The position numbers were made by a program, and so were the translations under genes. Source: a candidate division WWE3 bacterium (lineage in GTDB: Bacteria > Patescibacteriota > WWE3 > 2-01-FULL-39-13). Taken from it: a stretch of DNA of 64,000 bases. The stretch is taken from NCBI GenBank assembly GCA_943354835.1, contig CALRDH010000001.1:46460-110459 (forward strand), given 5' to 3'. Below the pieces are notes generated by a model. The model searched no databases. It was not told where the DNA came from and was given only the letters and a program-made list of their open reading frames with translations. Positions 9,418 to 63,344 of the stretch are shown here, piece by piece (positions within the stretch are counted from its first letter, which is position 1; the number at the start of each line of letters is the position of its first letter).

Positions 9418-10767
9418 TCACAAAGCCTCCAATAAATTTTTTACAATTAAATCTCCATGACCGACAGCAAGAACCAAAACCAGATCTCCTTCGTTAGATT
9501 TCTCAACCGCTAATTTTACGGCATCGTCTAGTGAATTACACAAAACGGAACTAACAGTCCCAGACTTTGTTACATTAAAAAAATCTTCGTTCGAAATTGG
9601 ATATGGAAGATTTTCTCTAGATGCATAAATTGGACATTGAATTAAATCAACACCATTAAAAACTCCGCTGAATTCATTTAAAAGTTCCGCACATCTTTTG
9701 TATTGATGAGGTTCATATATAACGATCACATTTTTTCCTGTTGAAATTGCTGCATCAACAGTCACCTTAATTTCAGTTGGATGGTGACCGTAGTCATTTA
9801 CAACTGTAATTCCATTTTTAATTGAGGATTGAAACCGGCGGCCCGTCCCTTTAAATAAGTTTAATTTTAAGATTGCATCATTGATATCAAAACCCATAAT
9901 CATACAAACAACCAGGGCCGCCGTAGCATTGAATGCGTATTGCTTTCCCGGAAACGGAATTTTTGCATTATAAACATTTTCTCCGATATTAATTTTCCAT
10001 GACGACTCAAATCCATTTATCTCAATTCCACTTATCACTACATCATTTGATTTATCTTCTCCATATGTCATGAAATTTCCAGCAAAATTAGTTTTGATTT
10101 TCTCAACTGGAGTCTGATCTCCCCACATTAAAACATGACCACCCGACTTCACATTTGAAACAAATTTACAAAAAGAATTAATGTACGAATCATAATCTTT
10201 GAAATAATCATGATGATCCATTTCCAATGATGTAATAACAGCGATTTTTGGTTCAAGGCCTAAAAATGCATCAGCAAATTCATCAGCCTCAATCACGAAA
10301 TTTTTTGACATTCCATTTCTCCCGTTTGTTTCAAAATTGATTGAAGTTCCACCAATTCCAAATCCGCATTTATCACCTAAAGAATCTAGCAAAAAAGAAG
10401 TTAATGAAGTTGTTGTCGTTTTTCCATGTGTTCCAGAAATCGCAATAACATCTTTATCATTTAATAATATTGGCAAAAATTCATTTCTCTCATAACTTTT
10501 AACTCCAACATTTATGGCTTCATCAAGTTCCTTTTTATTTTCCTCGTTATATTTAATTGCAGAAGTGTATAAAAACGCATCCAAATTGGATTTAATATGA
10601 GAAGGTGAATTTCCTAAATCAAGATCTTTAAGGCCTAATTCAAATAATTCTTTAACTCGTTCATTTTCATCTAAGTTACAACCAGAAACATCCCAACCCT
10701 TTTCAAGCAAAATTTTTGCAATCCACGACCAACCTTCTCCTCCAATTCCTGCAATATGAACTTTCAT
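9418..10767 (-). CDS. murC: UDP-N-acetylmuramate--L-alanine ligase
   Basis: N-terminal HIAGIGGEGWS (the MurC GIGG motif) and Mur ligase P-loop GTHGKTTTTS. Confidence 0.8.
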   Translation of the reverse strand: MKVHIAGIGGEGWSWIAKILLEKGWDVSGCNLDENERVKELFELGLKDLDLGNSPSHIKSNLDAFLYTSAIKYNEENKKELDEAINVGVKSYERNEFLPILLNDKDVIAISGTHGKTTTTSLTSFLLDSLGDKCGFGIGGTSINFETNGRNGMSKNFVIEADEFADAFLGLEPKIAVITSLEMDHHDYFKDYDSYINSFCKFVSNVKSGGHVLMWGDQTPVEKIKTNFAGNFMTYGEDKSNDVVISGIEINGFESSWKINIGENVYNAKIPFPGKQYAFNATAALVVCMIMGFDINDAILKLNLFKGTGRRFQSSIKNGITVVNDYGHHPTEIKVTVDAAISTGKNVIVIYEPHQYKRCAELLNEFSGVFNGVDLIQCPIYASRENLPYPISNEDFFNVTKSGTVSSVLCNSLDDAVKLAVEKSNEGDLVLVLAVGHGDLIVKNLLEAL

Positions 10768-11750
10768 ATAACAACAACCTCTCTTTCTATGTCTATATCA
10801 AATATCGATTTCACTTTATCTTGAATTAATTTCGAAAATTCAAAAACTTCAAGACCTGTTGCACCGCCAAAATTAATTAAGACCAAAGCTTGTTTTTCAT
10901 AAACCCCGCAATTGCCATACCTCTGTCCCTTAAAACCAGCTTTTTCTATAAGCCAACCTGTTGGAATTTTATACTTCTCATTTTCTTCTAGAAAAAACGG
11001 GACATCAGGATAATTTTTTTGTAAGATTTCAAACTTATCTTTTGAAATTATTGCGTTTTTGAAAAAAGAACCTGCAGTACCAAATTTAATAGTATCTGGA
11101 AGTTTTTCGCTTCGAATTTTTATAACGGCATTTCTTACATCAAGTATCGTCGGATTATTATTTTTTATGAGATCAAAATAGTCCTTCAAAGCTTTATACG
11201 ATAAATTAATAATTGGCTTTTTAGATAATTTATACAAAACAGAAACCACGACGTATTGATTCTTTAATTCATTTTTAAAAACGCTATCTCTGTATCCAAA
11301 TTTACATTCATCCAAATTGAAGAATCTAGTTTCACCTGTATTGATATTAATTGCTTCAAGTGATTCAAAAGAACTTTTAATTTCAGATCCATAAGCGCCA
11401 ATATTTTGAATAGGAGTTGCACCAACAAGGCCAGGAATTCCCGACAAATTTTCAAATCCACCATAACCTTTTTCAACACTATACGAAACTAGATCATCCC
11501 AAATTTCACCAGCATATGCCTTTACATAGACATTATTTTCATCTTCTTTTTCTACGTTAATTCCTTTTAATGAAATTTTAATTACAAGTCCATTAAAATC
11601 TTGTGTAAACAAAACATTACTTCCGCCTCCAAGAATAAATTTGTCTACGTTTTGATATAAAGGATTCTTTAAAATATTAATAAGCTCTGAAAGTGTATCT
11701 GCGTCTTCAAAATACAATGAATTGGCCTTTACGCCAAATGTGTTATACAT
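10764..11750 (-). CDS. murB: UDP-N-acetylenolpyruvoylglucosamine reductase
   Basis: FAD-binding GGGSNVLF motif. Size and position between murC and murA. Confidence 0.8.
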   Translation of the reverse strand: MYNTFGVKANSLYFEDADTLSELINILKNPLYQNVDKFILGGGSNVLFTQDFNGLVIKISLKGINVEKEDENNVYVKAYAGEIWDDLVSYSVEKGYGGFENLSGIPGLVGATPIQNIGAYGSEIKSSFESLEAININTGETRFFNLDECKFGYRDSVFKNELKNQYVVVSVLYKLSKKPIINLSYKALKDYFDLIKNNNPTILDVRNAVIKIRSEKLPDTIKFGTAGSFFKNAIISKDKFEILQKNYPDVPFFLEENEKYKIPTGWLIEKAGFKGQRYGNCGVYEKQALVLINFGGATGLEVFEFSKLIQDKVKSIFDIDIEREVVVI

Positions 11751-34189: not shown

Positions 34190-35509
34190 TTAACTAACGG
34201 TTACTACTAAAGGCTTTAACTCAACATTCACTAATTTAAGTTTAGCATATTGATTAAAAATAAGGGCACAATAGTCTAACGACAAAGATTCCCACTGTCT
34301 CTTTATAAAAACAGATTTAGAAAACGCAACATATTTTTCTATATTTCCTTCTAATTTTGTTAGCCTAGATCTAAAACTTTTTGAATTTATATTAAATATA
34401 ATATCTTCATTTTTCAAACCAGAATTTGCAAGAGAATACTTTATATCATTGCTTTTAAAATACTCGCTCAAAACATTCGATAATAAGACAGGTTTATTGT
34501 ACGAAAAAGCCAATGATAATGGCCCCGAAGATGACATAAACGTTTTGTATGGCAATATAACGGCTTCACAAGCATTATAATAATAATCAACCATATCGTC
34601 AGGAACAAAACCCGTCATTATTGCACCTTTTTCTTTTGCAAGTTTTTTTATCTTTTCTATAAATTCTTGATAAAAAGCATCACTTGCATATGCCGGATTT
34701 TCTCCGCCTGCAATTATTAGTTCATACCCTGTGTTTTTGTCCCAGATTTGAAGTAAATCATCAATTCCTTTATATAAAGATAAAAAGCCAAAGTATAATA
34801 AGTATTTTTTATTTGCATCTAAACCTAATTTCTTTTTCGCAATCGATTTATCTATTATTTTTTTTGGTTCAACAGCTAATGCTATAACAGAAATTTTGTC
34901 ACTATCTCCCAAGTGTTCTTTCATACTCTGCTCAAAAACAATAACGTTTTCACATGGAAACATGATTAAATTGTAAAAAGCACTTCTTAAATTATTAAAG
35001 ATAAAAGCTTTAGCTTTATTATGTTCAAAAACACCTATATCAGAAACAACATTGTGGAATATTAAAGTAACATCTTTACCTATAATCTTTGAAAGATAAA
35101 TTAAACCTATATATATAGGTAAATATATTAAATTCCCAACGATAAAAAATTCAAAAGGAAATAATATCTTATTAGATTTTGACTTTACTATCTCTTTTGC
35201 AATACTAAATAAACCCTTAAGGCTATTAATTTTCCACTTTCTTTGAACGTTAATCCCATCTTCGTCTACGTATGCTTCTGGTTTATTGAAAATATTAGCA
35301 ATAACCTTAACATTTAATTCAGGCATCGCTTTTTTCATCCATTTAAGGGTTTTTTGTGTATGCCAGGCAATTCCACCTGTCATATTTTTATATTTTTTAT
35401 TTCTACTTGGATAACTTGAAATTACTAACAAGCTATCGGTTTCTTTAATATTATTCATAAATTTCATATTTCTATTTACGAGATTAAAATCTCTCCTAAA
35501 TAAAAACAA
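34190..35509 (-). CDS. glycosyltransferase family 4 (GT-B fold)
   Basis: C-terminal GT1/GT4 signature region (LIIAGGENP...FVPDD...AVILPY). A possible later start at MKFMNN, about 35467. Confidence 0.7.
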   Translation of the reverse strand: MFLFRRDFNLVNRNMKFMNNIKETDSLLVISSYPSRNKKYKNMTGGIAWHTQKTLKWMKKAMPELNVKVIANIFNKPEAYVDEDGINVQRKWKINSLKGLFSIAKEIVKSKSNKILFPFEFFIVGNLIYLPIYIGLIYLSKIIGKDVTLIFHNVVSDIGVFEHNKAKAFIFNNLRSAFYNLIMFPCENVIVFEQSMKEHLGDSDKISVIALAVEPKKIIDKSIAKKKLGLDANKKYLLYFGFLSLYKGIDDLLQIWDKNTGYELIIAGGENPAYASDAFYQEFIEKIKKLAKEKGAIMTGFVPDDMVDYYYNACEAVILPYKTFMSSSGPLSLAFSYNKPVLLSNVLSEYFKSNDIKYSLANSGLKNEDIIFNINSKSFRSRLTKLEGNIEKYVAFSKSVFIKRQWESLSLDYCALIFNQYAKLKLVNVELKPLVVTVS

Positions 35510-35611
35510 GCGGTCGAGATCGAAAAGGGAATGTGCATAAGCACAAATAGCAAAATCTGCTACCCTAGTCGACCTCGACCCTAACAGAAAAGCACAAATT
35601 GTACTACGGAA

Positions 35612-35782
35612 CTACGGCTGCGGTGTTGCAGTCACAATCGCACTCGGCTGGGGAGCCGGGAGTTGTGGGGCCGAAGGCTCCTGCTCTCCTATCCCTAGTG
35701 GGTTGTACACGAATTGCAACACGATCAGTAGGACTAGCAGTCCAGCTGCAATTGCTGATTTAACACCGAAATACGCTTTCAT
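35612..35782 (-). CDS. small hypothetical exported or membrane peptide (56 aa) in the high-GC island
   Basis: Reads MKAYFGVKSAIAAGLLVLLIVLQFVYNPLGIGEQEPSAPQLPAPQPSAIVTATPQP. Preceded by GAGGAG six nucleotides upstream of the ATG. GC-rich codons. Shorter than 60 aa, so absent from the ORF track. Confidence 0.3.
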   Translation of the reverse strand: MKAYFGVKSAIAAGLLVLLIVLQFVYNPLGIGEQEPSAPQLPAPQPSAIVTATPQP

Positions 35783-36042
35783 GGAAATCTCCTCGTTGTT
35801 GTGTTGTTGAATAAAAAAAGCACGTTTAAGCTAACGAGGTTGTGACCTCATTCTCTTAATTCGTGCTTTCTAAGTATTCGCAACATTCCAAAAAAGGATT
35901 TCAAAGTCAATGCGAACGCACGCTTTTTCTTTCCGTAATATTTGTGCCGTGTTTACATAATTCTTTGAATTGGCTCAAGCTTATTGAGCTTATCTCTGAA
36001 AAAGCAAACACTATATGAACGTACTTTTACCTTGCGGTAAAT

Positions 36043-36080
36043 CTAAACCAACGAACGAATTGTTCCTTGGCTAGTTTTTA
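36043..36080. repeat. copy A of a conserved ~35-nt upstream motif (AACGAACGAATTGTTCCTTGGCTAG)
   Basis: Shares the CGAACGA(A/T)TTGTTCC core with the copies at 37613 and 39586. Lies about 260 bp 5' of the small ORF start. Confidence 0.35.
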
Positions 36081-36116
36081 ACTGAGATGAAAAGATCGCA
36101 AATCAAAAACTACTGT

Positions 36117-36190
36117 GGGACTGTGACTTTTAAAAACTGATTGCTTGCGCAACCAAAACTCATACGAAATCGCATGAGAGTCACAGTCCC
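36117..36190 (-). terminator. long stem-loop downstream of the island gene: a 12-bp perfect stem enclosing nested small hairpins
   Basis: GGGACTGTGACT (36117-36128) pairs with AGTCACAGTCCC (36179-36190). The 50-nt loop contains the CTCAT...ATGAG and TTGCGCAA palindromes. On the minus strand it is followed by AGTTTTTGATTT. Confidence 0.3.
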
Positions 36191-36212
36191 TTGAGGCACT
36201 ACATCCTACTGA

Positions 36213-37280
36213 CTACTGATTTTTGAACACCAATGGCAAGTTTGTCCTGTAAAGACATTCTTGCTCCTCACCGCCGCCTTCGTACACGTAGCACACGTAA
36301 ATCGGTGTTGGCGTCGGGGTTACCGTCGCTGTTGCCGTCGGCGTGCTGGTTGGTGTCGACGTGCTCGTCGGTGTCGGCGTCGAACTCGGAGTACTGCTGG
36401 GTGTCGCACTCGGCGTCGGGGTAGCCACTGGCTCCTCAACATTCCAAATGGACGATCCACCCGCTGCGATAGTCGCACTTCGCGCCTCTGCCCATGTCGG
36501 CCAAGTCTTTCCATCCACTGCAGGGGAACCTGTTGTAAGGTACCAACCCCCTGGCGTGCACGGATCTGACATCGGCAATCTATTGGCTTCGGCCAAACTA
36601 CTTGTCACCCACGGGGATGACCCATCACAGAACCCACTCGGTGCCGCATCGAACATTGCTGTCGCGGTCGGGGTCGCTGTGGACGTGCTCGTCGGAGTAC
36701 TGCTTGGTGTCGCGGTTGGCGTGTTCGTCGCTGTGCTGGTCGGGACCGGCGTACTCGTTGACGTATTCGTCGCTGTGCTAGTCGGAACCGGCGTACTCGT
36801 TGACGTGTTCGTCGCTGTGCTAGTCGGAACCGGCGTACTCGTTGACGTATTCGTCGCTGTGCTGGTCGGGACCGGCGTACTTGTTGACGTATTCGTCGCT
36901 GTGCTAGTCGGAACCGGCGTACTCGTTGACGTGTTCGTCTCTGGGGTGGCTGTTGCCTCCCAGTGAATGCGCCATATCGACGATCCGCCTGCACTCACAG
37001 TTGCGTTTCTCGCTCCAGTCCATTCCGGCCACCTAACTCCGTTAAGGGTACCCACTCCTATTGTGAGGAATGGCCCTCCGGCTGGTGAACACGGGTCTTG
37101 AACGGGGAGCGCATCTGCCTCTTGCTGCGTACTCGAAACCCAAGGGGCCGATCCTGCACAGAATTGTGCGAGATTCGGCGATCCGGCGGTAACGATACGT
37201 GCAACGTAAGGCGAAAGCGTACTTCCTACGATGATTGCAAACGCAATCAAAGCCCTCAAAAACTTACTAATCTGAAACAT
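36213..37280 (-). CDS. secreted protein with two homologous ~70-aa Cys-containing domains joined by a Thr/Pro-rich tandem-repeat linker
   Basis: Signal peptide (MFQISKFLRALIAFAIIVGS) with AAGGAG 7 nt upstream of the ATG at 37280; the ORF track extends to a GTG at 37310. Domains: CAGSAPWVSSTQQEADALPVQDPCSPAGG...ARNATVSAGGSSIW and CDGSSPWVTSSLAEANRLPMSDPCTPGG...ARSATIAAGGSSIW. The linker is TNTSTSTPVPTSTA five times. GC3-rich codons. Confidence 0.6.
   Translation of the reverse strand: MFQISKFLRALIAFAIIVGSTLSPYVARIVTAGSPNLAQFCAGSAPWVSSTQQEADALPVQDPCSPAGGPFLTIGVGTLNGVRWPEWTGARNATVSAGGSSIWRIHWEATATPETNTSTSTPVPTSTATNTSTSTPVPTSTATNTSTSTPVPTSTATNTSTSTPVPTSTATNTSTSTPVPTSTATNTPTATPSSTPTSTSTATPTATAMFDAAPSGFCDGSSPWVTSSLAEANRLPMSDPCTPGGWYLTTGSPAVDGKTWPTWAEARSATIAAGGSSIWNVEEPVATPTPSATPSSTPSSTPTPTSTSTPTSTPTATATVTPTPTPIYVCYVYEGGGEEQECLYRTNLPLVFKNQ
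36716..36940. repeat. 42-bp tandem repeat (~5.3 copies) encoding the TNTSTSTPVPTSTA linker
   Basis: Direct reading shows GTTGACGT(A/G)TTCGTCGCTGTGCT(A/G)GTCGG(A/G)ACCGGCGTACT(C/T) repeated head-to-tail. Confidence 0.75.
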
Positions 37281-37612
37281 TCTGATTTTCTCCTTACTAC
37301 GAAAAAACACGGGTAGAGGTACTTCAACAACTAACTTATCCCGAGTTTTTTTCCGGATAATTTAGTTGCTGAAGTGTCTATCTTTTGTTTTTCTGTTCTT
37401 TGAAGATTGAATGTCTCTACATTGTCTCTATCTAACTTAGTTTGTAATATAACGCCTTGCACTTGCGTGCGCGGCTACTATTACTCACTTCGTTTGTAAT
37501 ATAGTGCCTCGTATGAGCATAAAGATTCCTAAAGATCCAGTCAGAATTTGATTGGCCTTTATTCGTCTAACTCATACTATTTAAAAGAACTACGCCTTTC
37601 GGCGTTTCCGAT

Positions 37613-37660
37613 TGCTAACGAGCGATTTGCTCCTTAGTCGGTTGAAGGATTTCCCGTCCT
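37613..37660. repeat. copy B of the conserved upstream motif (CTAACGAGCGATTTGCTCCTTAGTCGGTTGAAGGATT)
   Basis: 33 of 37 positions match copy C, and every mismatch is a transition. About 330 bp 5' of the 36213-37280 gene. Confidence 0.4.
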
Positions 37661-38078
37661 GCCCTTCGGAAAACCCTTCAATCGTTTTTGCTACTTATTA
37701 GGTTTTATTTAATGATCGATATCCTGTGAGGTTAACTTAATGGTTGCGGCCTGACAGGACCTTTCACTTAAAAAGCTATCAGTCGCTACAACTTGTGTTT
37801 GTAGCGTACTGCAGTATTAATACTGTAGGCTATTCAAGTGAAGGCTAATATTACTATAGGGCAATCAAGATGTCAAAGGCATGTACAGGCCGGGTACATG
37901 GGTAACACTTTTGAAAAACTATTGTACGAGTTTATCACCTTCTGTACATATTCTACTGGCGTGTCCTGTCCATGGCTCTCATGTGGCTTTTATGTATTGT
38001 ATTCATAGATTCCAAACTTGAAACTGCGGGTGTAAGCCCGTGGAGATTCATATAAAAGAATAATCGTCTACCTCTTTC

Positions 38079-39407
38079 TTAAAATAAGAACTTCTCAAGA
38101 TAGTTAACCATGTAAAATGGCAAAGAAAGAACATTATACCCATGTGCGGTTAGCTCTTTTTTAGGGTGTCCAGAATACAGTTTTACTGCAATTCCACCAT
38201 TGGTATCCGATAAAAAGCTGTCAATAGATTTCCCCTTCGAATCGTTATATTTAACTTCTATGGCTGTTATTTTACTGCTTCCTTGTATGCAGTAATCGAC
38301 TTCGGCACTCCCCTTTTTAGAGTCTTTCGTCCAATAATATAGCTGCTGTCGATTAGCCATATTATTTGCCAATATATTCTGCCCGATTATCTGCTCATAA
38401 ATCGATCCTTTATATGTATATCTGGTCTTGTCAATTTGTTCTGGTGTTTTAACTTGATACAAATAGTTCGTAAACCCTGCGTCAATAAATAATAACTTGT
38501 GTGGTGGCTTATTCTTTTTGTGAATCGGGACCTCTGTAGACCACGTTGCTGGTACCAAAGTTAATAACATGACTTTTTCTAGCAAAGTAAAAGCCTCTCT
38601 TACTTCTCTACTTTTATAGCCCGAATCCGCAAAATTATCGAATTTTATTAAAGAACCAGCATAATATGGTCCTTGTGTAATTATCAAATCGAGGTATTTT
38701 GTTTTAGAGGATGTCGCATACTTATACACATCATCTGCATACCCAGAAAGGATAGAATTGTATATGCTAGTTAATAAATTATTATTTCTATGTTCTGCAT
38801 AATTCGCAACTATTTCTGGCATTCCTCCTATTAAGGTATACAGCCTAAATAACTCTATTAATTCGACATGGATAACATCGATTACTTCGAGATTTAGCAA
38901 ATCAATTTTTTCGATATAACTTACAAATTCTTCTTTCCCTAAGGCCACAAGAAATTCTATAAAAGTTAATGGATTAAGATACGCATACTCAATCCGCCCA
39001 ACCGGAATAGAGACTCCAGTTTCGGTTATTGTGGCTTCGAAAAACGACCCAGCCGCTATAACATGGATATTGGGTCTTAATTCATAAAAGAACCGCAACA
39101 GTGTAATTAAATAAGGATTTACTTGTATTTCGTCGATAAAAACTAATGTTTTTTCGTTTACAAGCGATTTATTATATTTGGTTTTTAAAATATCTTCAAA
39201 TTGCTCTATGCTAATTTCCCCATCAAAGTTATCTCTATCTGCAATATTTTCTAAATTTAAATATATGTAATTTTCGAAATGCTCTGCGAAAATATTTACA
39301 GCCATAGTCTTTCCAACTTGCCTGGCTCCTCTAAGTATTAATGGTTTACGATCGGCTTTATCTTTCCAGTTAAGTAAATATTTATGAATAGCTCGTTTTA
39401 TTCTCAT
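38079..39407 (-). CDS. AAA+ ATPase of the AAA_14/DUF4143 type
   Basis: Walker A LILRGARQVGKT, Walker B VFIDEIQ, and a C-terminal DUF4143-like region. 442 aa. Confidence 0.65.
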   Translation of the reverse strand: MRIKRAIHKYLLNWKDKADRKPLILRGARQVGKTMAVNIFAEHFENYIYLNLENIADRDNFDGEISIEQFEDILKTKYNKSLVNEKTLVFIDEIQVNPYLITLLRFFYELRPNIHVIAAGSFFEATITETGVSIPVGRIEYAYLNPLTFIEFLVALGKEEFVSYIEKIDLLNLEVIDVIHVELIELFRLYTLIGGMPEIVANYAEHRNNNLLTSIYNSILSGYADDVYKYATSSKTKYLDLIITQGPYYAGSLIKFDNFADSGYKSREVREAFTLLEKVMLLTLVPATWSTEVPIHKKNKPPHKLLFIDAGFTNYLYQVKTPEQIDKTRYTYKGSIYEQIIGQNILANNMANRQQLYYWTKDSKKGSAEVDYCIQGSSKITAIEVKYNDSKGKSIDSFLSDTNGGIAVKLYSGHPKKELTAHGYNVLSLPFYMVNYLEKFLF

Positions 39408-39585
39408 CTTAAAAGAATACTACTTTAGTTTTCAAGTTGCAACTTACTTGTAACACACCAGGGAACAAACTAGTACTTACTTAAGACATTCCCGGGGTTA
39501 CAATTCAAGTGTAAGCGAAGAATTGCTAGCCGAACACGTAAGTGTGAGGCGTTAAATTGGATTTCTGTTCCGATCTACAAGCTAT

Positions 39586-39640
39586 TGCTTCTAGCGAACG
39601 ATTTGTTCCCTAGTTGGTCGAAAGATTCATCCTTCGATCA
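39586..39640. repeat. copy C of the conserved upstream motif (CTAGCGAACGATTTGTTCCCTAGTTGGTCGAAAGATT)
   Basis: About 180 bp 5' of the AAA ATPase gene 38079-39407. Also shares the TTCCGAT...ATTGCT block with copy B. Confidence 0.4.
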
Positions 39641-39833
39641 TTAATTTTTCATTCAAATATCCAATAAAACTCACTTTAAAAACGAACTTTAGTAGATACC
39701 CGACTCATTGTAATGATTAAAATTTGTTTTTTTTTGCTGGCTCGAATTGAGTCAACGAAACAAATCTTCTACAAGAAGTTGTCGCAAATGTCTTGGGACA
39801 TTAAGGGGGAAAATAAATTATAAACTAAAAATT

Positions 39834-41012
39834 TTACTGAATATAACCGCCCCACAGGTAGTCGTTAAATCTAGCAGACTCTTCTTTTCCTATCAACCGA
39901 TAATCTTTTATGCCCAGACTTTCACTTTTAGCACTTAGCTTAGACGAATCAATATCTGTCGGAGTTTCTTTTGCCTCTAACGATAGGCTTCTATTCAATA
40001 TAAAATCGATTTCGCCGTCTCTTTTTGAATAGTAGTTCAGATTTCCATAAAAAGATAATTGGTGGCATAATGTATTTTCGTATTTACTTCCGGATGATAT
40101 GTCTGCATTTAAATTTGCTATTCCCGTATCCACAAAATAAATTTTCCCAGCTTTTCTTGTCTGAACATTTATGGATTTAGAATATACTTCTATATTTCTA
40201 ATTAAATAAGTCTTTTCCAAAAATTCAATATAAGAATCTATCGTTGGTCTGCTAATGCCTAATATCTTTGAAATTTCGTTAACATTTGTATTACTTCCTA
40301 TACGTGAAGCAAGTAACTTTATTAATTTTCTTAAATTACTAGAAGATTTAAAATCTGCAATTGCTTCGATGTCTAAAGTAATATACGAACTAAATATTTC
40401 TTCCAGCAATAATCTTTTTCTTTCAATGTCTTCGGTAAGAACTATTTTAGGTAAACCACCATATTCTATGTATTCTCTATACAGTGGTGATAGAAGGTTA
40501 TATGCATTTTTATTAAATTCACCGTTTGTATCAATTTTTTCTGGCAAATCATAACCAACCCCTTTAAAATTTAGAAACTCTTGAAATCTTAATGGAAACA
40601 TTTCATAAATAACTTTTCTTCCTGCCATAGATTCAGAGAATTTATTTTTGATATAAAAAGAGCTCGATCCTGTTAAGAAAAATTTAATATTATAGTGATC
40701 ATGTAGGTATTTAACGATATCCGGAATTGTTTCGAGTAATTGTATTTCGTCAATAGCGATATATAACTTTTCGGCTATATTCAAACCCCTATTTTCAAAC
40801 TCATTTACCAAAGCATCAAAGTTTTTAGTTTCGAAAAGTTCTCTATCTGAAATATTTTGAAGATCGAAATAGATTTTATTCTTTGATTCAAGCTGGTCTA
40901 AAAGCCAATATATGGTTGTAGTTTTTCCGACCTGCCTTGGACCAGTTATTACAATAACCTCCTCCGTAGTTAGCTCTTTTTTCAATTTTGCCCAAATTAA
41001 ACGATTTTTCAT
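39834..41012 (-). CDS. AAA+ ATPase of the AAA_14/DUF4143 type (paralog)
   Basis: Walker A VITGPRQVGKTT, Walker B IAIDEIQ. Its leader sequence is related to that of the upstream paralog. Confidence 0.65.
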   Translation of the reverse strand: MKNRLIWAKLKKELTTEEVIVITGPRQVGKTTTIYWLLDQLESKNKIYFDLQNISDRELFETKNFDALVNEFENRGLNIAEKLYIAIDEIQLLETIPDIVKYLHDHYNIKFFLTGSSSFYIKNKFSESMAGRKVIYEMFPLRFQEFLNFKGVGYDLPEKIDTNGEFNKNAYNLLSPLYREYIEYGGLPKIVLTEDIERKRLLLEEIFSSYITLDIEAIADFKSSSNLRKLIKLLASRIGSNTNVNEISKILGISRPTIDSYIEFLEKTYLIRNIEVYSKSINVQTRKAGKIYFVDTGIANLNADISSGSKYENTLCHQLSFYGNLNYYSKRDGEIDFILNRSLSLEAKETPTDIDSSKLSAKSESLGIKDYRLIGKEESARFNDYLWGGYIQ

Positions 41013-41219
41013 GCTACTACTTTACATAAATGGACGGTTTTTGTAAAGTACAACTTGCACTACGCACACTTAACTATTCCTGTTTCTTCCGTATTCTTTT
41101 TTGTAATCTTTTGCAACCGCCCTAAGATTTATCCAGTTTTGAATCGTCATAGTAATTAAAAAGTGCACATTCTGCCCAATGTGTTACCTGTGTTTCTCAA
41201 CCTGTGCAGGGGGGCCAAT

Positions 41220-41933
41220 TCAAACAAATCGTCCTAATTCATTTCTAAAAACAACGTCGAAGTTACCAATAATATTATGCAAGCTTCTTGGAAGAAAAGC
41301 TTTTAGTTCAGATGAGAAATTTATCTTTGTGGTATTAAAGACATTTAAAACCTGTTTTAACAACTTTCTTTGATTTAGAGTTATCAATCCATTACGTAGC
41401 ATAAAATAGATATCGTAAAAATCCCTTGGCTTCTTTCGACTTATAGAAGCTTTTATCTTTTCTTCGACTAAATAATCTTGAGATAAAGAAAGTAACGTAT
41501 AGTCATTTACGAATTCGCTTGATATTACATGCATATCAGATTTCAATTCACCATTTTGTCTAAGCGACACCTGTATGCTTATTTCAATATTATAATCAAA
41601 AAATTTATAATAAATATTCGATAAATACTCACCAGACGTAGCTTTCGATACTAAAACGCCTACATCAAAGCCTTCTTTTGCAGAACAATCTAACGCCACA
41701 AGTATAGCTCCTTCAATTTTTTTTACAGTTAATGCAGAAGAAAATTCTAAATCTTCAGAAAACCTTGAACTGTTAAACACTATTCGCAAGGCGGTTCCAC
41801 CATTAAAATAAATTTCAGGATTACTAGCATAAAAATAAGACAAAAAAACATGTTGGCAATATTCTCTCGCTATATTTATTTCTGCCGTTTGAAATTTAAT
41901 AGATTTTTTCTTTATTTCCTGCTTGTCTATCAT
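41220..41933 (-). CDS. abiEii: AbiEii-like nucleotidyltransferase toxin (type IV toxin-antitoxin)
   Basis: YFNGGTALRIVFNSSRFSEDLEF matches the GGTAL...RFSEDxDF nucleotidyltransferase motif of the AbiEii/DUF1814 family. Overlaps the upstream antitoxin gene. Confidence 0.65.
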   Translation of the reverse strand: MIDKQEIKKKSIKFQTAEINIAREYCQHVFLSYFYASNPEIYFNGGTALRIVFNSSRFSEDLEFSSALTVKKIEGAILVALDCSAKEGFDVGVLVSKATSGEYLSNIYYKFFDYNIEISIQVSLRQNGELKSDMHVISSEFVNDYTLLSLSQDYLVEEKIKASISRKKPRDFYDIYFMLRNGLITLNQRKLLKQVLNVFNTTKINFSSELKAFLPRSLHNIIGNFDVVFRNELGRFV

Positions 41934-42746
41934 AATTTTCCTTAATCCACTTACTCAAACTCTTAGAATCAAATAATTCGGCATACTCTACAACATCTTT
42001 TTTATTCACTTTCTCTAGGTTTAATCTGTCGTTAAATGCAATCCTGCCCAATGAAACAAAATATAGATAATCAGCAACAGCTTTCTCTGGTTTAGCCATA
42101 TAATAGTTATCCATTTTGGTATATCCCGTAAAAGCTTTTGTTTTAACACTCCTGTATAAATATGACATATTATTTACATCAAACTCATTTGTGGTTTTAG
42201 TTGTCACACATGTAATTGAATAAACAACTTCAGGAATAAGCCCATATACAGAAAGGGCTGATTCTAAGGATATATACGAAGGTTTAATCAGATATGCCGA
42301 AATCGAATACGTACTCGGAATAAAGTCCTTTGAATAATAAAGTCCGTTCTTAATTTTTATAAAAAATCCATAAATTGCTCTTACTTTGAAATTCGTTAAA
42401 CGTGTTGTATCTCATTGGGGAAAGTATACAAAAGTGTATACTTTCCCCAATGAGAATACGAGTCATGAAAGTTATCGCACCAGTCTTTGTTAAATTGCTT
42501 TATGCTTTGATTTAAAGTGTTATCACTTTCAGGAACCAACATCTTTAATGTGTTTTTCATAAAGTATGGAAGGCTTTTTAGTTTTAAAATATCTGCGCTT
42601 TTCATTTTAGTAATGGTACTAAATACATGCCAATTCCAAAACGCGTCGAACAAATTGTCAAACACATGAAACTCCACGGGCTTAGGCCATAGTTTCATAC
42701 AGGGCATAAATTCTGGTATTTTTTGGATCCATATTAGTAACGGCAC
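41896..42746 (-). pseudogene. abiEi: AbiEi-like antitoxin gene split by a 44-bp palindromic insertion or frameshift
   Basis: The 103-aa ORF (AKPEKAVADYLYF) continues upstream in-frame without a start codon (...IKIKNGLYYSKD...SYISLESALSVYGLIPEVV) to a TGA at 42414-42416. The 116-aa ORF 42396-42746 is in the other frame. Deleting 42411-42454 joins them into one ~267-aa AbiEi-like ORF with wHTH TTRLTNFKVRAIYGFFIKIKNGLYY. Confidence 0.5.
42411..42454. repeat. perfect 19-bp inverted repeat with a 6-bp spacer (44 bp)
   Basis: CTCATTGGGGAAAGTATAC aaaagt GTATACTTTCCCCAATGAG. There are no mismatches in the arms. Confidence 0.85.
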
Positions 42747-61157: not shown

Positions 61158-61716
61158 TGAAGAAAATCTTGAAAACATCTCAAATGAAATTTCCTTGTGT
61201 ACAAAGTGTGCATTATGTAAATCCGCGATACAGGCAGTTCCTGGAAGTGGAAATCCAAATACAAAGATTGTTTTTATTGGTGAGGCGCCTGGGTTTTATG
61301 AAGACCAACTAGGTCTATCTTTTGTAGGCAGATCCGGGAAATTATTAGATTTTTTATTAGGTCAAATCAAATTAAATAGGAATGATGTTTGGATCGGGAA
61401 CATTATAAAGCACAGGCCGCCTGAAAACAGGGATCCAAGCCCTGAAGAAATAAAAATCTGCAAATCTTTTTTAACTAGGCAACTTGATGTTATTAATCCT
61501 AAAATTATTATCACATTAGGCAGGTTTTCGATGAATTATTTCTTGCCTGATGCAGTAATTTCAAAGGCACACGGAAAAACGCACCAAGTTGGAAGATTTG
61601 TAATTTATCCTTTGTATCATCCGGCGGCGGGACTTAGAAATCCAAACATGAAACTTCAGCTTATAGAGGACTTTTTAAAAATACCTGATATTATAGAGAT
61701 GACAAATTTAATATGA
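61135..61716 (+). CDS. uracil-DNA glycosylase, family 4
   Basis: CxxC (CTKCALCKS), GEAPG motif (FIGEAPGFYED) and the C-terminal HPAAGLRN. Confidence 0.75.
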   Translation: MKSLKMNNEENLENISNEISLCTKCALCKSAIQAVPGSGNPNTKIVFIGEAPGFYEDQLGLSFVGRSGKLLDFLLGQIKLNRNDVWIGNIIKHRPPENRDPSPEEIKICKSFLTRQLDVINPKIIITLGRFSMNYFLPDAVISKAHGKTHQVGRFVIYPLYHPAAGLRNPNMKLQLIEDFLKIPDIIEMTNLI

Positions 61717-63344
61717 ATATAAGCGAAAGACCATCTTTAAAAATTATTCCAATCGGCGGAACAACAACAGTTCAAAAGAATATGTACGTTTACGAATGCG
61801 GAAACGACATGATCGTCATGGACTGTGGAATTGGATTTCCAGATATGGAAACTCCTGGAGTTGACGTTACAATACCTGATTTTACTTACATACTAGAAAA
61901 TCGACATAAAGTTCGCGGTGTTGTAATAACACATGGCCATGAAGATCATAGAGGTTCACTGCCATACTTACTTCAAGAACATAAGTTCGATGTTTATGCT
62001 GTTCCATTTGTAAAGGCATTAATAGAAAAATCATTAGAAGAGTATACAAATCTTGGAGATTACAAAGTTAAAGCTTTTGATCCTAATCAATCATTCCAAC
62101 TTGGATGTTTTAGGTTGACACCATTTAGAGTTAACCATTCAATCCCAGATACGCTCGGATTTGCAATCGATACACCACAAGGAAGAATTTTCCACAATTC
62201 AGATTTTAAATTTGACTGGTCACCTGTAATGGACAAACCTTTTGATGTACAAAAGGCGGCTCGCCTTGCAGGCGAGCCGCAAGAAGGCGTCTTAGCTCTT
62301 CTTTCAGACTGTTTAGGAGCTACTTCTGAAGGTTTCACAGAATCTGAAAGCAAAATCCAAGAAACTTTCGAAAAAGTATTAAAAAATTCAAAAGACAAAC
62401 AAGTATTCATTACAACAATCTCCTCAAACATTTCAAGAATCCAACAGGCAATTAATGCTGCTGAAAAATTTGGAAGAAAAGTTGTATTAAGTGGAAGATC
62501 AATAAGAAACACAATCGAAATAGCACAACAAATGGGATATATAAAAGAAGCAAAAGACACAATTATTGATGAGCGCGACGCGCATAACCACAAACAAGAA
62601 ACATTAATCTACATTATAACTGGATGCTACGGCCAAAAAGAAGCGGGCCTGTGGCGCGTCGCCCTAGGCGAACACAAAAGTATTACTATTTCAGATAAAT
62701 CAGTAGTAATTTTTTCTGCTGATCCAATACCGAATTCCGTTTCGGCAGTAAATTCACTAATCGACGAACTATATTTAAAAGGCGTTGATGTTTATTATTC
62801 AGAAATCCAAGATGATCTTCACGTTTCTGGCCACGGCGGTCAAGGCGACATGGTGCTTCTTGCCAATATTGTTAGACCAAAATATTTTATTCCAATTGGT
62901 GGAAGCATAAAGCACATGAGGGCATATGCAAATTTAATCGATGCAAATGGTTTTGACAAAAGAAATGTAGCTCAACTACTTGATGGTCAAAGCATCGTTT
63001 TTAAAGATGGAAAAGCGGCACTTGGAGACAGACTAAAACTTAAAGAAGTATACGTAGACGGAAATTTAGTTGGTGATGTTGGCGCAAGCGTTCTTAAAGA
63101 TAGAATTCAAATGGCAAATCATGGAATGGTAGCTGTCGTAATTCACGGCCAAAATATCGAAATAATAACAAGAGGATTTGTTTTCATTAAAGGTTCTAAG
63201 AAGCTTCTAGAATCAGCAGAAAACATAATCAGAAAATCCTTAACAGAAAAGAAGGATGAAAGAAAAATAGAAAATAAACTTCAACAATTTCTATTCAAAG
63301 AAACAGGCAGAGAACCAATTGTCGTCGTCACAATAGCTAACTAA
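61713..63344 (+). CDS. rnj: ribonuclease J (metallo-beta-lactamase/beta-CASP)
   Basis: HxHxDH motif VITHGHEDHRGSLPYL, the beta-CASP region, and HVSGHGGQ. Confidence 0.85.
   Translation: MNISERPSLKIIPIGGTTTVQKNMYVYECGNDMIVMDCGIGFPDMETPGVDVTIPDFTYILENRHKVRGVVITHGHEDHRGSLPYLLQEHKFDVYAVPFVKALIEKSLEEYTNLGDYKVKAFDPNQSFQLGCFRLTPFRVNHSIPDTLGFAIDTPQGRIFHNSDFKFDWSPVMDKPFDVQKAARLAGEPQEGVLALLSDCLGATSEGFTESESKIQETFEKVLKNSKDKQVFITTISSNISRIQQAINAAEKFGRKVVLSGRSIRNTIEIAQQMGYIKEAKDTIIDERDAHNHKQETLIYIITGCYGQKEAGLWRVALGEHKSITISDKSVVIFSADPIPNSVSAVNSLIDELYLKGVDVYYSEIQDDLHVSGHGGQGDMVLLANIVRPKYFIPIGGSIKHMRAYANLIDANGFDKRNVAQLLDGQSIVFKDGKAALGDRLKLKEVYVDGNLVGDVGASVLKDRIQMANHGMVAVVIHGQNIEIITRGFVFIKGSKKLLESAENIIRKSLTEKKDERKIENKLQQFLFKETGREPIVVVTIAN

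Follow-up and report, generated by a model that had tools for sequence, protein, structure and literature searches.

A short sequence motif recurs in three consecutive intergenic spacers within one gene island of a patescibacterial metagenome-assembled genome, and this raises the question of whether it represents a DNA signal, the remnant of a mobile sequence, or part of an RNA. The DNA analysed here, referred to as the window, is a stretch of 64 kb of contig CALRDH010000001.1, and all positions given without further specification are positions of the window. The original prediction, made from the sequence of this stretch, had considered a shared operator or promoter, a cis-regulatory RNA leader, and a repeated mobile sequence. 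The element is larger than the motif: the motif corresponds to one module, hairpin H2, which is the most sequence-conserved hairpin of a leader that is very probably a cis-acting structured RNA on the sense strand of the gene that follows. The leader family is undescribed, is supported by covariation, and is located upstream of surface-protein genes in a small group within Candidatus Levybacteria, which are ultra-small bacteria of the candidate phyla radiation. The leader probably controls whether transcription reaches the gene, and its best overall explanation, held tentatively, is that of a conserved structured 5' leader acting in a manner similar to the N utilization (nut) sites.

To our knowledge, gene regulation in the Patescibacteria (candidate phyla radiation, CPR) is almost unstudied, and very few cis-regulatory RNAs have been described from their tiny, compact genomes. 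The covarying leader reported here is at least 150 nt long, possesses predicted promoters of its own, and precedes genes for secreted or membrane proteins. Since such proteins are the likeliest mediators of host-cell attachment, the leader constitutes a testable handle on the control of the cell surface.

Occurrence of the motif

At 0-1 mismatch, the core of the motif (CGARCGAWTTGYTCCYTWG) is found at exactly three sites of the window (36052-36070, 37619-37637, and 39595-39613), all of them matches on the plus strand, whereas 0.26 sites are expected from shuffled sequences; these are the three copies, here called A, B, and C, that the original prediction had named along with this core. A covariance model of the H2 hairpin (R1), applied with filters off, yielded no additional copies in the window, and the adjoining 10 kb of the same genome contain neither another copy nor rRNA. 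In total, three copies exist over 74 kb, all situated in one island and in one orientation. The motif is thus real and non-random.

Several other observations of the original prediction hold as well: the TTCCGAT...ATTGCT block common to B and C is present; the spacers are unusually long (430 nt at 35783-36212, 768 nt at 37311-38078, and 426 nt at 39408-39833); the hairpins are situated around 184 nt (C), 266 nt (A), and 335 nt (B) upstream of start codons on the minus strand; and the downstream genes were correctly recognized as a small open reading frame (ORF), a threonine/proline (T/P)-repeat protein gene, and AAA_14+DUF4143 ATPase genes. Concerning the similarity of B and C, 33 shared positions out of 37 had been reported, with transitions as the only differences; counted from 37613 and 39589, respectively, they share 29 of 37 positions and differ by seven transitions and one transversion.

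The motif is an inverted repeat consisting of 4 bp, one mismatch, 4 bp, and a loop of 5 nt. On the plus strand, copy B reads CTAACGAGC-GATTT-GCTCCTTAG, the mismatch being C·C on this strand and G·G on the minus strand. Each of the three stem positions that vary among A, B, and C changes on both arms, i.e., in a compensatory manner. A short motif with apparently transition-only differences can be the visible tip of a far larger RNA.

Of the three copies, A and B belong to complete leaders. Copy C, which adjoins an inserted ATPase cassette, is a truncated leader, because only H3, H2, and a small hairpin are retained and the cassette starts 94 nt downstream; model R2 matches this copy only at model positions 3-25.

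Organization of the leader

Related loci used for comparison are L003, L009/L011/L014, L013, and L019, and individual copies carry names such as L003_1 or win_B. Complete leaders exhibit the order promoter, optional hairpin H3, H2, 0-5 further hairpins, a single-stranded box, a domain termed P, another 130-230 nt, and the start codon (see Table 1 for positions in the window). The structured leader RNA measures around 150-250 nt, the 5' leader overall 150-500 nt.

Upstream of seven leaders, a predicted promoter of the form TTGAC(A/T/G)-17 nt-TA(T/A/G)(T/A)AT is found, with a spacing of exactly 17 nt (variants TTGACA...TATTAT in L009 and L003, TTGACT...TATAAT in L013 and L019, and furthermore TTGATT...TATAAT and TTGACG...TAGAAT). 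The canonical promoters are situated 40-190 nt upstream of the element and point into it. Transcription of leader B would start near 37840; its promoter zone (37828-37879) is 85% identical to L009.

In five of the seven leader promoters, the sequence CC(C/T)ATAG directly precedes the -10 hexamer (37853-37860 in the window; around 12565 in L003, 10510 in L009, 3815 in L013, and 2050 in L019), and the other two possess CC(C/T)ATAGTC just 5' of the -35 hexamer. Inside the leader, the conserved box likewise ends in a heptamer, ATAGT(A/G)T. A reading of the box as a second promoter -10 element or as a sigma-dependent pause site, considered because ATAGTAT also precedes the -10 hexamer of five promoters, was rejected: the would-be hexamers of the box lack conserved A-11 and T-7, and there is no -35 element at a fixed distance.

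H3 (UUGAAGG...CCUUCAA) occurs in six copies, four of them with the conserved apical loop GGGCAGGAC. The form present in leader B is kept in L003_1, L009_1, and L013_1, in the last of these with compensatory changes in the inner stem. H2 consists of 4 bp, a purine·G mismatch, 4-5 bp, and a loop of 4-5 nt conserved as A(A/U)(A/U)(U/G)C; in the window, where the gene-sense strand is the minus strand, it is a 9-bp hairpin interrupted in the middle by a G·G mismatch. The distance between H2 and the box ranges from 14 to 125 nt and accommodates the accessory hairpins, whose stems are wholly different between orthologous copies, while 10 of their 15 loops are of the GNRA type (GAAA, GUAA, GCAA, GAGA). 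Hairpin H1 of leader B is an example: its counterpart in L003_1 has a fully swapped stem (GGAAUC-GUAA-GGUUCC), and no such hairpin is found at this place in L009_1. A hairpin is always situated 2-8 nt 5' of the box.

The box has the general form (A)GUUCUUUUAAAUAGUAU and exists in two variants, (A)GUUCUUU(U/A)AAAUAGUAU and ACAUUCAUAUAGUGU, the latter also written as AC(A/G)UUCAUAUAGU(G/A)U. The pattern CNTTNAWATAGTRT matches leaders only, whether in the window or in any of the other loci analysed. A GU-rich strand follows 3' of the box (GUGUGGGU in L013_1), and within this GU-rich 3' end begins the P domain, a hairpin of three tiers and 62-67 nt. Its outer stems include GUAUGAG/CUCAUAC, GUAUGAA/UUCAUAC, GUGUUUGC/GUAAACAC, GUGUGGGU/GCUCAUAC, and GUAUUUC/GAAAUAC, and its apical pentaloops are UAAGC, AUUGC, or GUUGC.

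A second box, AUAUUACAAAY, is often found in the 3' part (130-230 nt), where several copies also have, immediately ahead of the Shine-Dalgarno sequence, a terminator-like stem with a U-run. This second box (box2, (C)UAUAUUACAAAC) is found once after the P domain in L003_2, L013_2, and L019_1, and weakly in win_A. The terminator-like structure of leader A (AAAGCACG...CGUGCUUUUUUU, 35869-35811) lies about 30 nt before the ATG of the small ORF; its GCACG...CGUGCUUU stem recurs in L003_1 and L003_2.

Each of the ten complete leaders is followed by a gene on the same strand, situated 190-300 nt past the box, and all ten products possess an N-terminal signal peptide or membrane segments. Most of them combine T/P-rich linkers with repeated Cys-containing domains, or contain an SH3_3 domain.

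Evidence for structure and strand

In H2, 98.8% of the cells are paired among 10 copies from five genomes, and six of the nine pairs exhibit double changes (15 cells). These values exceed those of all 500 shuffles, and in slid controls at most 45% of the cells pair. The copy L009_2 contains an inserted base pair in this hairpin. For the P domain, RNAalifold, a method that the original prediction had named for testing the three copies for covariation, recovered three helices from an unguided MAFFT alignment, with compensatory changes in 14 of 18 pairs. In the pair counts, 87.5% of the cells are paired, versus 65% in shuffled and at most 50% in slid alignments. Double-change cells number 50 and additional pair types (the latter seldom a source of false positives) 36, and none of 500 shuffles reached either value. 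When each of the ten leaders is folded on its own, this three-tier hairpin (62-67 nt) reappears every time, and none of the ten minimum-free-energy folds pairs the box.

The strand follows from G·U pairs, GNRA loops, promoter direction, and the more stable folds of the minus strand, all of which point to an RNA on the gene-sense strand. The G·U cells number 20, and on the opposite strand pairing would drop from 87.5% to 81.2% in P and from 98.8% to 96.3% in H2. GNRA motifs, as read from the sequences, make up 10 of the 15 accessory loops on the gene-sense strand and none on the other. Compared to shuffled sequences, minus-strand folds have z values of -4.6, -6.5, and -2.9, plus-strand folds of -1.5, -4.3, and -2.0.

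The analysis accordingly establishes the structure, its strand, promoters as predicted elements, and the link to genes whose products are secreted or membrane proteins. Of the interpretations offered by the original prediction, the cis-regulatory RNA leader is the one that is backed, i.e., by covariation of H2 and of the 65-nt domain over five genomes, by the strand signals, and by the promoters. A shared operator or promoter is not supported for the motif itself, which is situated downstream of the promoters and whose arms covary so as to maintain pairing and not a fixed half-site.

Distribution among related genomes

The search in related genomes, likewise suggested by the original prediction, led to 11 copies in five Candidatus Levybacteria genomes, those of the window included, and all of them are on the strand of the flanking gene. 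L003, a different genome found via its 95%-identical ATPase of 442 aa, contains two copies, which flank a gene for a secreted T/P-linker protein up- and downstream in the arrangement of B and A. A third genome, a Levybacteria metagenome-assembled genome represented by L009/L011/L014, possesses three copies (detected with a relaxed H3+H2 pattern). L013 with two copies and L019 with one were reached via orthologues of a neighbouring protein of 1245 aa.

A strict 23-mer pattern had no matches in the viral, GTDB-genome, and JGI-metagenome collections. The H3+H2 pattern matched three JGI contigs, all of this clade, and a box+H2 pattern, which fits four of the known copies, matched none of the GTDB representative genomes and no viral contig. 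More distant syntenic loci (L022, L024, L018, L012) contain no copy. The distribution is narrow, and the family is so far confined to one subgroup of Levybacteria, with five genomes.

Scans with Rfam 15 gave no match at the gathering level in the window or in L003, L004, L009, and L011. At permissive E-values (35500-41300, leader B, and the L019 leader), scattered matches well under the threshold appeared, none of them common to homologous leaders. In the literature, no earlier description of such a leader in Patescibacteria was found. The element belongs to a known kind, that of the cis-regulatory leaders, and may be nut-like.

Possible action on transcription

By analogy, Nus-type or other processive antitermination appears possible, if somewhat doubtful, as the way in which the leader acts. 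The H2-like hairpin (comparable to boxB), the boxA-like box, and the GU-rich boxC-like segment would load Nus-type elongation factors onto RNA polymerase; alternatively, a dedicated RNA-binding protein that recognizes H2 could be the factor loaded. So equipped, the polymerase would escape termination, whether Rho-dependent or intrinsic, along the lengthy untranslated leader and arrive at the surface-protein gene.

The boxA consensus is GYTCTTTAANA (Baniulyte et al. 2017, PMC5725501), of which NusB-NusE bind an 8-nt core, (U/G)GCUCUUU (PMC3177189). boxA is also found ahead of targets other than rRNA, e.g., suhB and CRISPR arrays (PMC5725501, PMC7665894). The box of L003_1 (GTTCTTTAAAA) matches this consensus perfectly, and those of win_B and L009_1 have one mismatch; around three mismatches are found in win_A, L003_2, L013_1, L013_2, L019_1, L009_2, and L009_3. 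In an alignment by eye, positions G1, C4, T6, T7, A9, and A11 are invariant across the copies, and AGUUCUUU in the first (GUUCUUU) variant is the counterpart of the 8-nt NusB-NusE core. The setting is also that of a boxA, with a box predicted to be unpaired, a hairpin adjacent on its 5' side, and predicted promoters upstream of seven leaders from which it would be transcribed. Several leaders contain terminator-like stems and U-runs before the start codon, Rho genes are found in related Patescibacteria, and termination, Rho-dependent or intrinsic, could plausibly act on an untranslated leader of this length with terminator-like stems inside it.

A number of points weigh against this interpretation. 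With at most one mismatch allowed, 225 kb of these AT-rich genomes contain 67 sites of the boxA consensus (both strands counted), and the likeness of the box is therefore only moderately informative. The second box variant (win_A, L003_2, L013_1, L013_2, L019_1) differs at two of the eight core positions, and half of the copies overall deviate at core positions of boxA. Neither the window nor the fetched loci contain rRNA genes that could supply a boxA of the host's own, and nusB, a nusG paralog, and rho are likewise absent from the window. The regulated units look short and monocistronic and have their own terminators, unlike in classical processive antitermination. A Nus model also leaves the strict conservation of the H2 sequence and of the P apical loops unexplained. 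Promoters and leader status are, moreover, predictions from sequence, and win_A, win_C, L003_2, and L009_2 possess no convincing promoter of their own, which weighs against regarding every copy as a leader.

The leaders might also constitute a novel leader-RNA class, seen so far in Levybacteria alone, that switches the surface proteome of an episymbiotic CPR bacterium in a self-contained way; H2 and P would be the platform for a ligand or a dedicated protein, and the boxA-like box would couple their signal to the processivity of the polymerase. Taken as a whole, this combination is unlikely. We know of no organism in which Nus-type antitermination combined with a sensor domain has been described.

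Alternative explanations

An unlikely alternative to nut-like action is a riboswitch-like attenuator responsive to a factor or ligand, in which H2, box, and P would sense a small molecule or an RNA-binding protein and act at the terminator-like stem or at the Shine-Dalgarno sequence. It would account for the aptamer-sized and strongly covarying core, for the position of conserved nucleotides in loops (those of H2 and the P apex) and in a single-stranded joiner (the box), and for terminator-like stems with U-runs near the start codon; in leaders with a long H3, an upstream UCCUG can pair either locally or with the H3 loop GGGCAGGAC. For a ligand pocket, however, the architecture is unusually loose, given 0-5 inserted hairpins, an optional H3, and a variable distance between H2 and box (14-125 nt). 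No alternative pairing is kept in all copies, the downstream genes hint at no metabolite, and Rfam riboswitches gave zero matches.

Four other devices within the leader were considered and rejected. A leader peptide is disfavoured because the short ORFs that begin within the box or the P stem are, by sequence reading, unconserved. Kissing between the loops of H2 and P is precluded by loops that are alike rather than complementary. A Shine-Dalgarno mimic in H2 (AAGGAG) is unconserved (AGAGAG in L003_2, AAUAAA in L009_3). Against an intrinsic terminator stand the mismatch in the middle of H2 and, in A and C, the lack of a U-run behind it.

Rather unlikely is a leader that stabilizes or processes the mRNA of highly expressed surface-protein genes in the manner of the 5' untranslated regions of S-layer genes, with hairpins blocking 5'-end-dependent decay and P as a possible RNase III site. 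The near-consensus promoters, the strong terminators after the genes, the secreted or surface products, and the many very stable, often GNRA-looped hairpins would fit such a function, and RNase J is encoded in the window (61713-63344). Stabilization, however, demands structure and not sequence; it leaves unexplained why H2 is conserved in sequence and keeps a G·G mismatch, why certain box positions never vary, and why P is constant in length (62-67 nt) and loop motif. The conserved modules are also not at the extreme 5' end, those of leader B lying around 160-330 nt past the predicted start.

An independent trans-acting small RNA would end at the weak hairpin-and-U signal that follows H1 or H2 on the minus strand, or at H3 and its T-run on the plus strand. 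H1 of leader B followed by AGUUCUUUU did score as terminator-like, and a plus-strand T-run follows H3 of B and C. Only H1 of B scores in this way, however; conservation and covariation run through the box into P and further, the second box variant has no U-run, and the T-run of the plus strand is not kept in L003_1 or L009_2. With the strand evidence pointing to the gene-sense strand and each complete copy preceding a same-strand gene 190-300 nt after the box, a separate small RNA is very improbable, and a small RNA or terminator on the plus strand was rejected on account of the strand evidence and the unconserved T-runs.

The weakest alternative, of almost negligible probability, is an element acting at the DNA level (a remnant of a repetitive extragenic palindrome (REP) or miniature inverted-repeat transposable element (MITE), an integron attC-type recombination site through which the island genes arrived, or an operator with a palindromic sequence): imperfect palindromes do recur in consecutive spacers of a variable island that also contains a transferred ATPase cassette, a solo inverted repeat of an insertion sequence (IS), and toxin-antitoxin genes, but the cassette borders (39496, 38086) differ from H2, three copies exist over 74 kb in a single orientation, orthologous leaders adjoin genes of the same type in genomes where the surrounding genes are different, differing stem sequences within one genome disfavour a single DNA-binding protein, and G·U pairs, an inserted base pair, variable loop lengths, and GNRA loops indicate selection at the level of RNA. 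The mobile-sequence remnant of the original prediction is likewise not supported, as the borders of the only demonstrably transferred unit miss the motif; in addition, the leaders of L003 flank a similar secreted-protein gene with no ATPase there, and copy C is a truncated leader.

Specific DNA elements were rejected as well. An integron attC site would have R''/R' core sites (RYYYAAC/GTTRRRY), of which sequence reading found none in or around H2; no integrase is encoded in the neighbourhood or found among the island proteins, and the cassette borders lie elsewhere. REP sequences, bacterial interspersed mosaic elements, or MITEs do not agree with few copies in one island and one orientation and with collection matches from this clade only (JGI metagenomes). 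As to a tRNA fragment or attachment site, ARAGORN found no tRNA in the window, and a GGTTCGAATCC-like string upstream of the ATPase (L003, L009) lies outside the element.

Genes and other features of the island

Table 1. Positions of leader parts and neighbouring genes in the window
Feature	Position	Strand	Remarks
Predicted promoter of leader B, sigma-70-type, TTGACA-17 nt-TAATAT	37848..37876	-	promoter scan, 10/12 matches
H3 of leader B, stem UUGAAGG/CCUUCAA, inner stem, apical loop GGGCAGGAC	37642..37681	-	folding
H2 of leader B (core of copy B), CUAAGGAGC-AAAUC-GCUCGUUAG	37615..37637	-	
H1 of leader B, ACGCC-GAAA-GGCGU	37592..37605	-	GNRA loop; just 5' of box
Box of leader B, single-stranded, boxA-like, AGUUCUUUUAAAUAGUAU	37574..37591	-	predicted unpaired
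P domain of leader B, 67-nt three-tier hairpin, outer stem GUAUGAG/CUCAUAC	37511..37577	-	folds, RNAalifold, pair counts
Remainder of leader B	37281..37510	-	two box2, 21-bp hairpin (37321-37375), U-run, Shine-Dalgarno AGGAG, then ATG 37280
Box2 of leader B (UAUAUUACAAAC), second conserved single-stranded box, duplicated	37432-37457, 37484-37509	-	
H2 of leader A (copy A), CCAAGGAAC-AAUUC-GUUCGUUGG	36048..36070	-	
H1 of leader A, UUUACC-GCAA-GGUAAA	36026..36041	-	GNRA loop
Box of leader A, AGUACGUUCAUAUAGUGU	36008..36025	-	same variant in L003_2, L013_1, L013_2
P domain of leader A, 63 nt, outer stem GUGUUUGC/GUAAACAC	35949..36011	-	one G·U in outer stem; apical loop UAAGC
Terminator-like structure of leader A, AAAGCACG...CGUGCUUU then U7	35811..35869	-	sequence reading and fold
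H3 of copy C, short form, UCGAAGG-AUGAAU-CUUUCGA	39618..39637	-	short form also in L009_2
H2 of copy C, CUAGGGAAC-AAAUC-GUUCGCUAG	39591..39613	-	no box or P domain downstream
56-aa membrane peptide (small ORF)	35612-35782	-	ATG at 35782
T/P-repeat secreted protein gene	36213-37280	-	ATG at 37280
AAA_14+DUF4143 ATPase, 442 aa	38079-39407	-	
Second AAA_14+DUF4143 ATPase	39834-41012	-	AbiEii toxin gene next
Horizontally acquired ATPase cassette (ATPase gene and 89 nt upstream)	38086..39496	-	between truncated leader C and leader B promoter

Judged from the sequence, the ATPase gene between copies C and B is a recently transferred cassette, because the cassette DNA is 92% identical to L003 (9912-11322; the protein 95%) and its borders are sharp, whereas housekeeping genes (RuvX, RecJ) of the window and of L003 are merely 66-70% identical at the DNA level. 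The neighbours on either side are wholly different (in L003, toxin-antitoxin genes and an NYN-domain gene), and the motif is not situated at the borders. The cassette behaves like a horizontally moving single-gene unit with its own promoter region.

A second mobile sequence is represented by a solo inverted-repeat remnant, TTAATGTCCCAAGACATTTGCGACAAC (39778-39804, minus strand), which agrees at 24 of 27 positions with the terminal inverted repeats of an rve-family IS. This IS, with a transposase of 299 aa, adjoins the orthologous leader in L009 (around 10540-11490); neither a second repeat nor a transposase of it is found in the window. Furthermore, a 32-nt inverted repeat with 81% complementarity connects 37446-37477, which folds as a GCAA-loop hairpin in leader B, with 39527-39558, where its reverse complement lies just downstream of the truncated copy C, a sign that DNA close to the inserted ATPase may have been inverted or rearranged.

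The secreted-protein gene contains at least six tandem units of 42 nt (36673-36985) encoding linkers of the type TSTATNTSTSTPVP. L001, a near-identical assembly of the same genome, has three linker units fewer and a product of 313 aa, which represents either copy-number variation or assembly collapse. Directly after this gene lies a long hairpin (GGGACTGTGACT...AGTCACAGTCCC, 36117-36190, minus strand), which has two smaller hairpins of terminator-like form inside it and a T-run behind it. Its GTC(A/G)CAGTCC arms recur after analogous genes in L003 (13445-13640) and L013 (5448-5516), and the structure looks like a conserved compound terminator.

Beside the ATPases, an AbiEii toxin gene with a small upstream ORF is found (41220-42207, minus strand). 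AbiEii is also present in the equivalent islands of L003 and L019, and PIN, PhdYeFM, and MazE modules are additionally found in L003. The surface-protein genes with leaders thus adjoin a variable defence and toxin-antitoxin island.

Comparison with known systems

The imperfect palindromes in successive intergenic spacers of a variable island are a feature shared with REP sequences and attC sites. The similarity ends at the low copy number, the fixed orientation, and the position of H2 downstream of promoters and inside a larger covarying RNA; unlike attC, furthermore, there are neither core sites nor an integrase, and the cassette borders are unmarked by copies.

Orphan cis-regulatory leaders and riboswitches of envelope genes (ydaO-type) and the 5' untranslated regions of S-layer genes are similar in that a covarying structured 5' leader precedes genes for secreted or cell-wall-associated proteins, with terminator-like stems near the start codon. 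They differ from the Levybacteria leader, which matches no described family, consists of loosely arranged modules with optional hairpins, and is found in five genomes of one subgroup.

The ops/JUMPstart element with RfaH, the hairpins in LoaP leaders, the eps-associated RNA (EAR) of eps operons, and put of phage HK022 are likewise elements of long 5' leaders of cell-surface genes, and all act on elongating polymerase, LoaP, EAR, and put via RNA hairpins. The 12-nt ops element is GGCGGTAGnnTG, with UAGCGUG as its 3' half, which the 3' half of the leader box, UAGU(A/G)UG, resembles, whereas the GGCGG part of ops is found in no copy. The likeness to ops/JUMPstart is thus confined to this half (TAGTRTG versus TAGCGTG). 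Other differences from the RfaH, LoaP, and EAR systems are that no Rfam EAR match and no nearby NusG paralog were found and that the leader precedes single genes rather than long operons.

The closest functional analogue is given by the nut sites of rrn operons and of phage lambda (boxB, boxA, and boxC, with NusB-NusE/S10, NusA, NusG, and SuhB). There are differences: the leader is not beside rRNA, half of the copies deviate from the boxA core, the additional modules H2 (with fixed sequence and G·G mismatch) and P (62-67 nt) are present, and the targets are short, apparently monocistronic surface-protein genes, at which Nus binding would be assumed by analogy. Despite these, the leader resembles nut in its position just past a strong predicted promoter, in the hairpin a few nucleotides 5' of a single-stranded box, and in the GU-rich segment after the box, which is the 5' strand of a long helix; boxC, in turn, forms part of the rrn leader-trailer helix. 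If the box indeed loads Nus factors, the range of non-ribosomal Nus targets would extend to CPR bacteria and to surface-protein genes.

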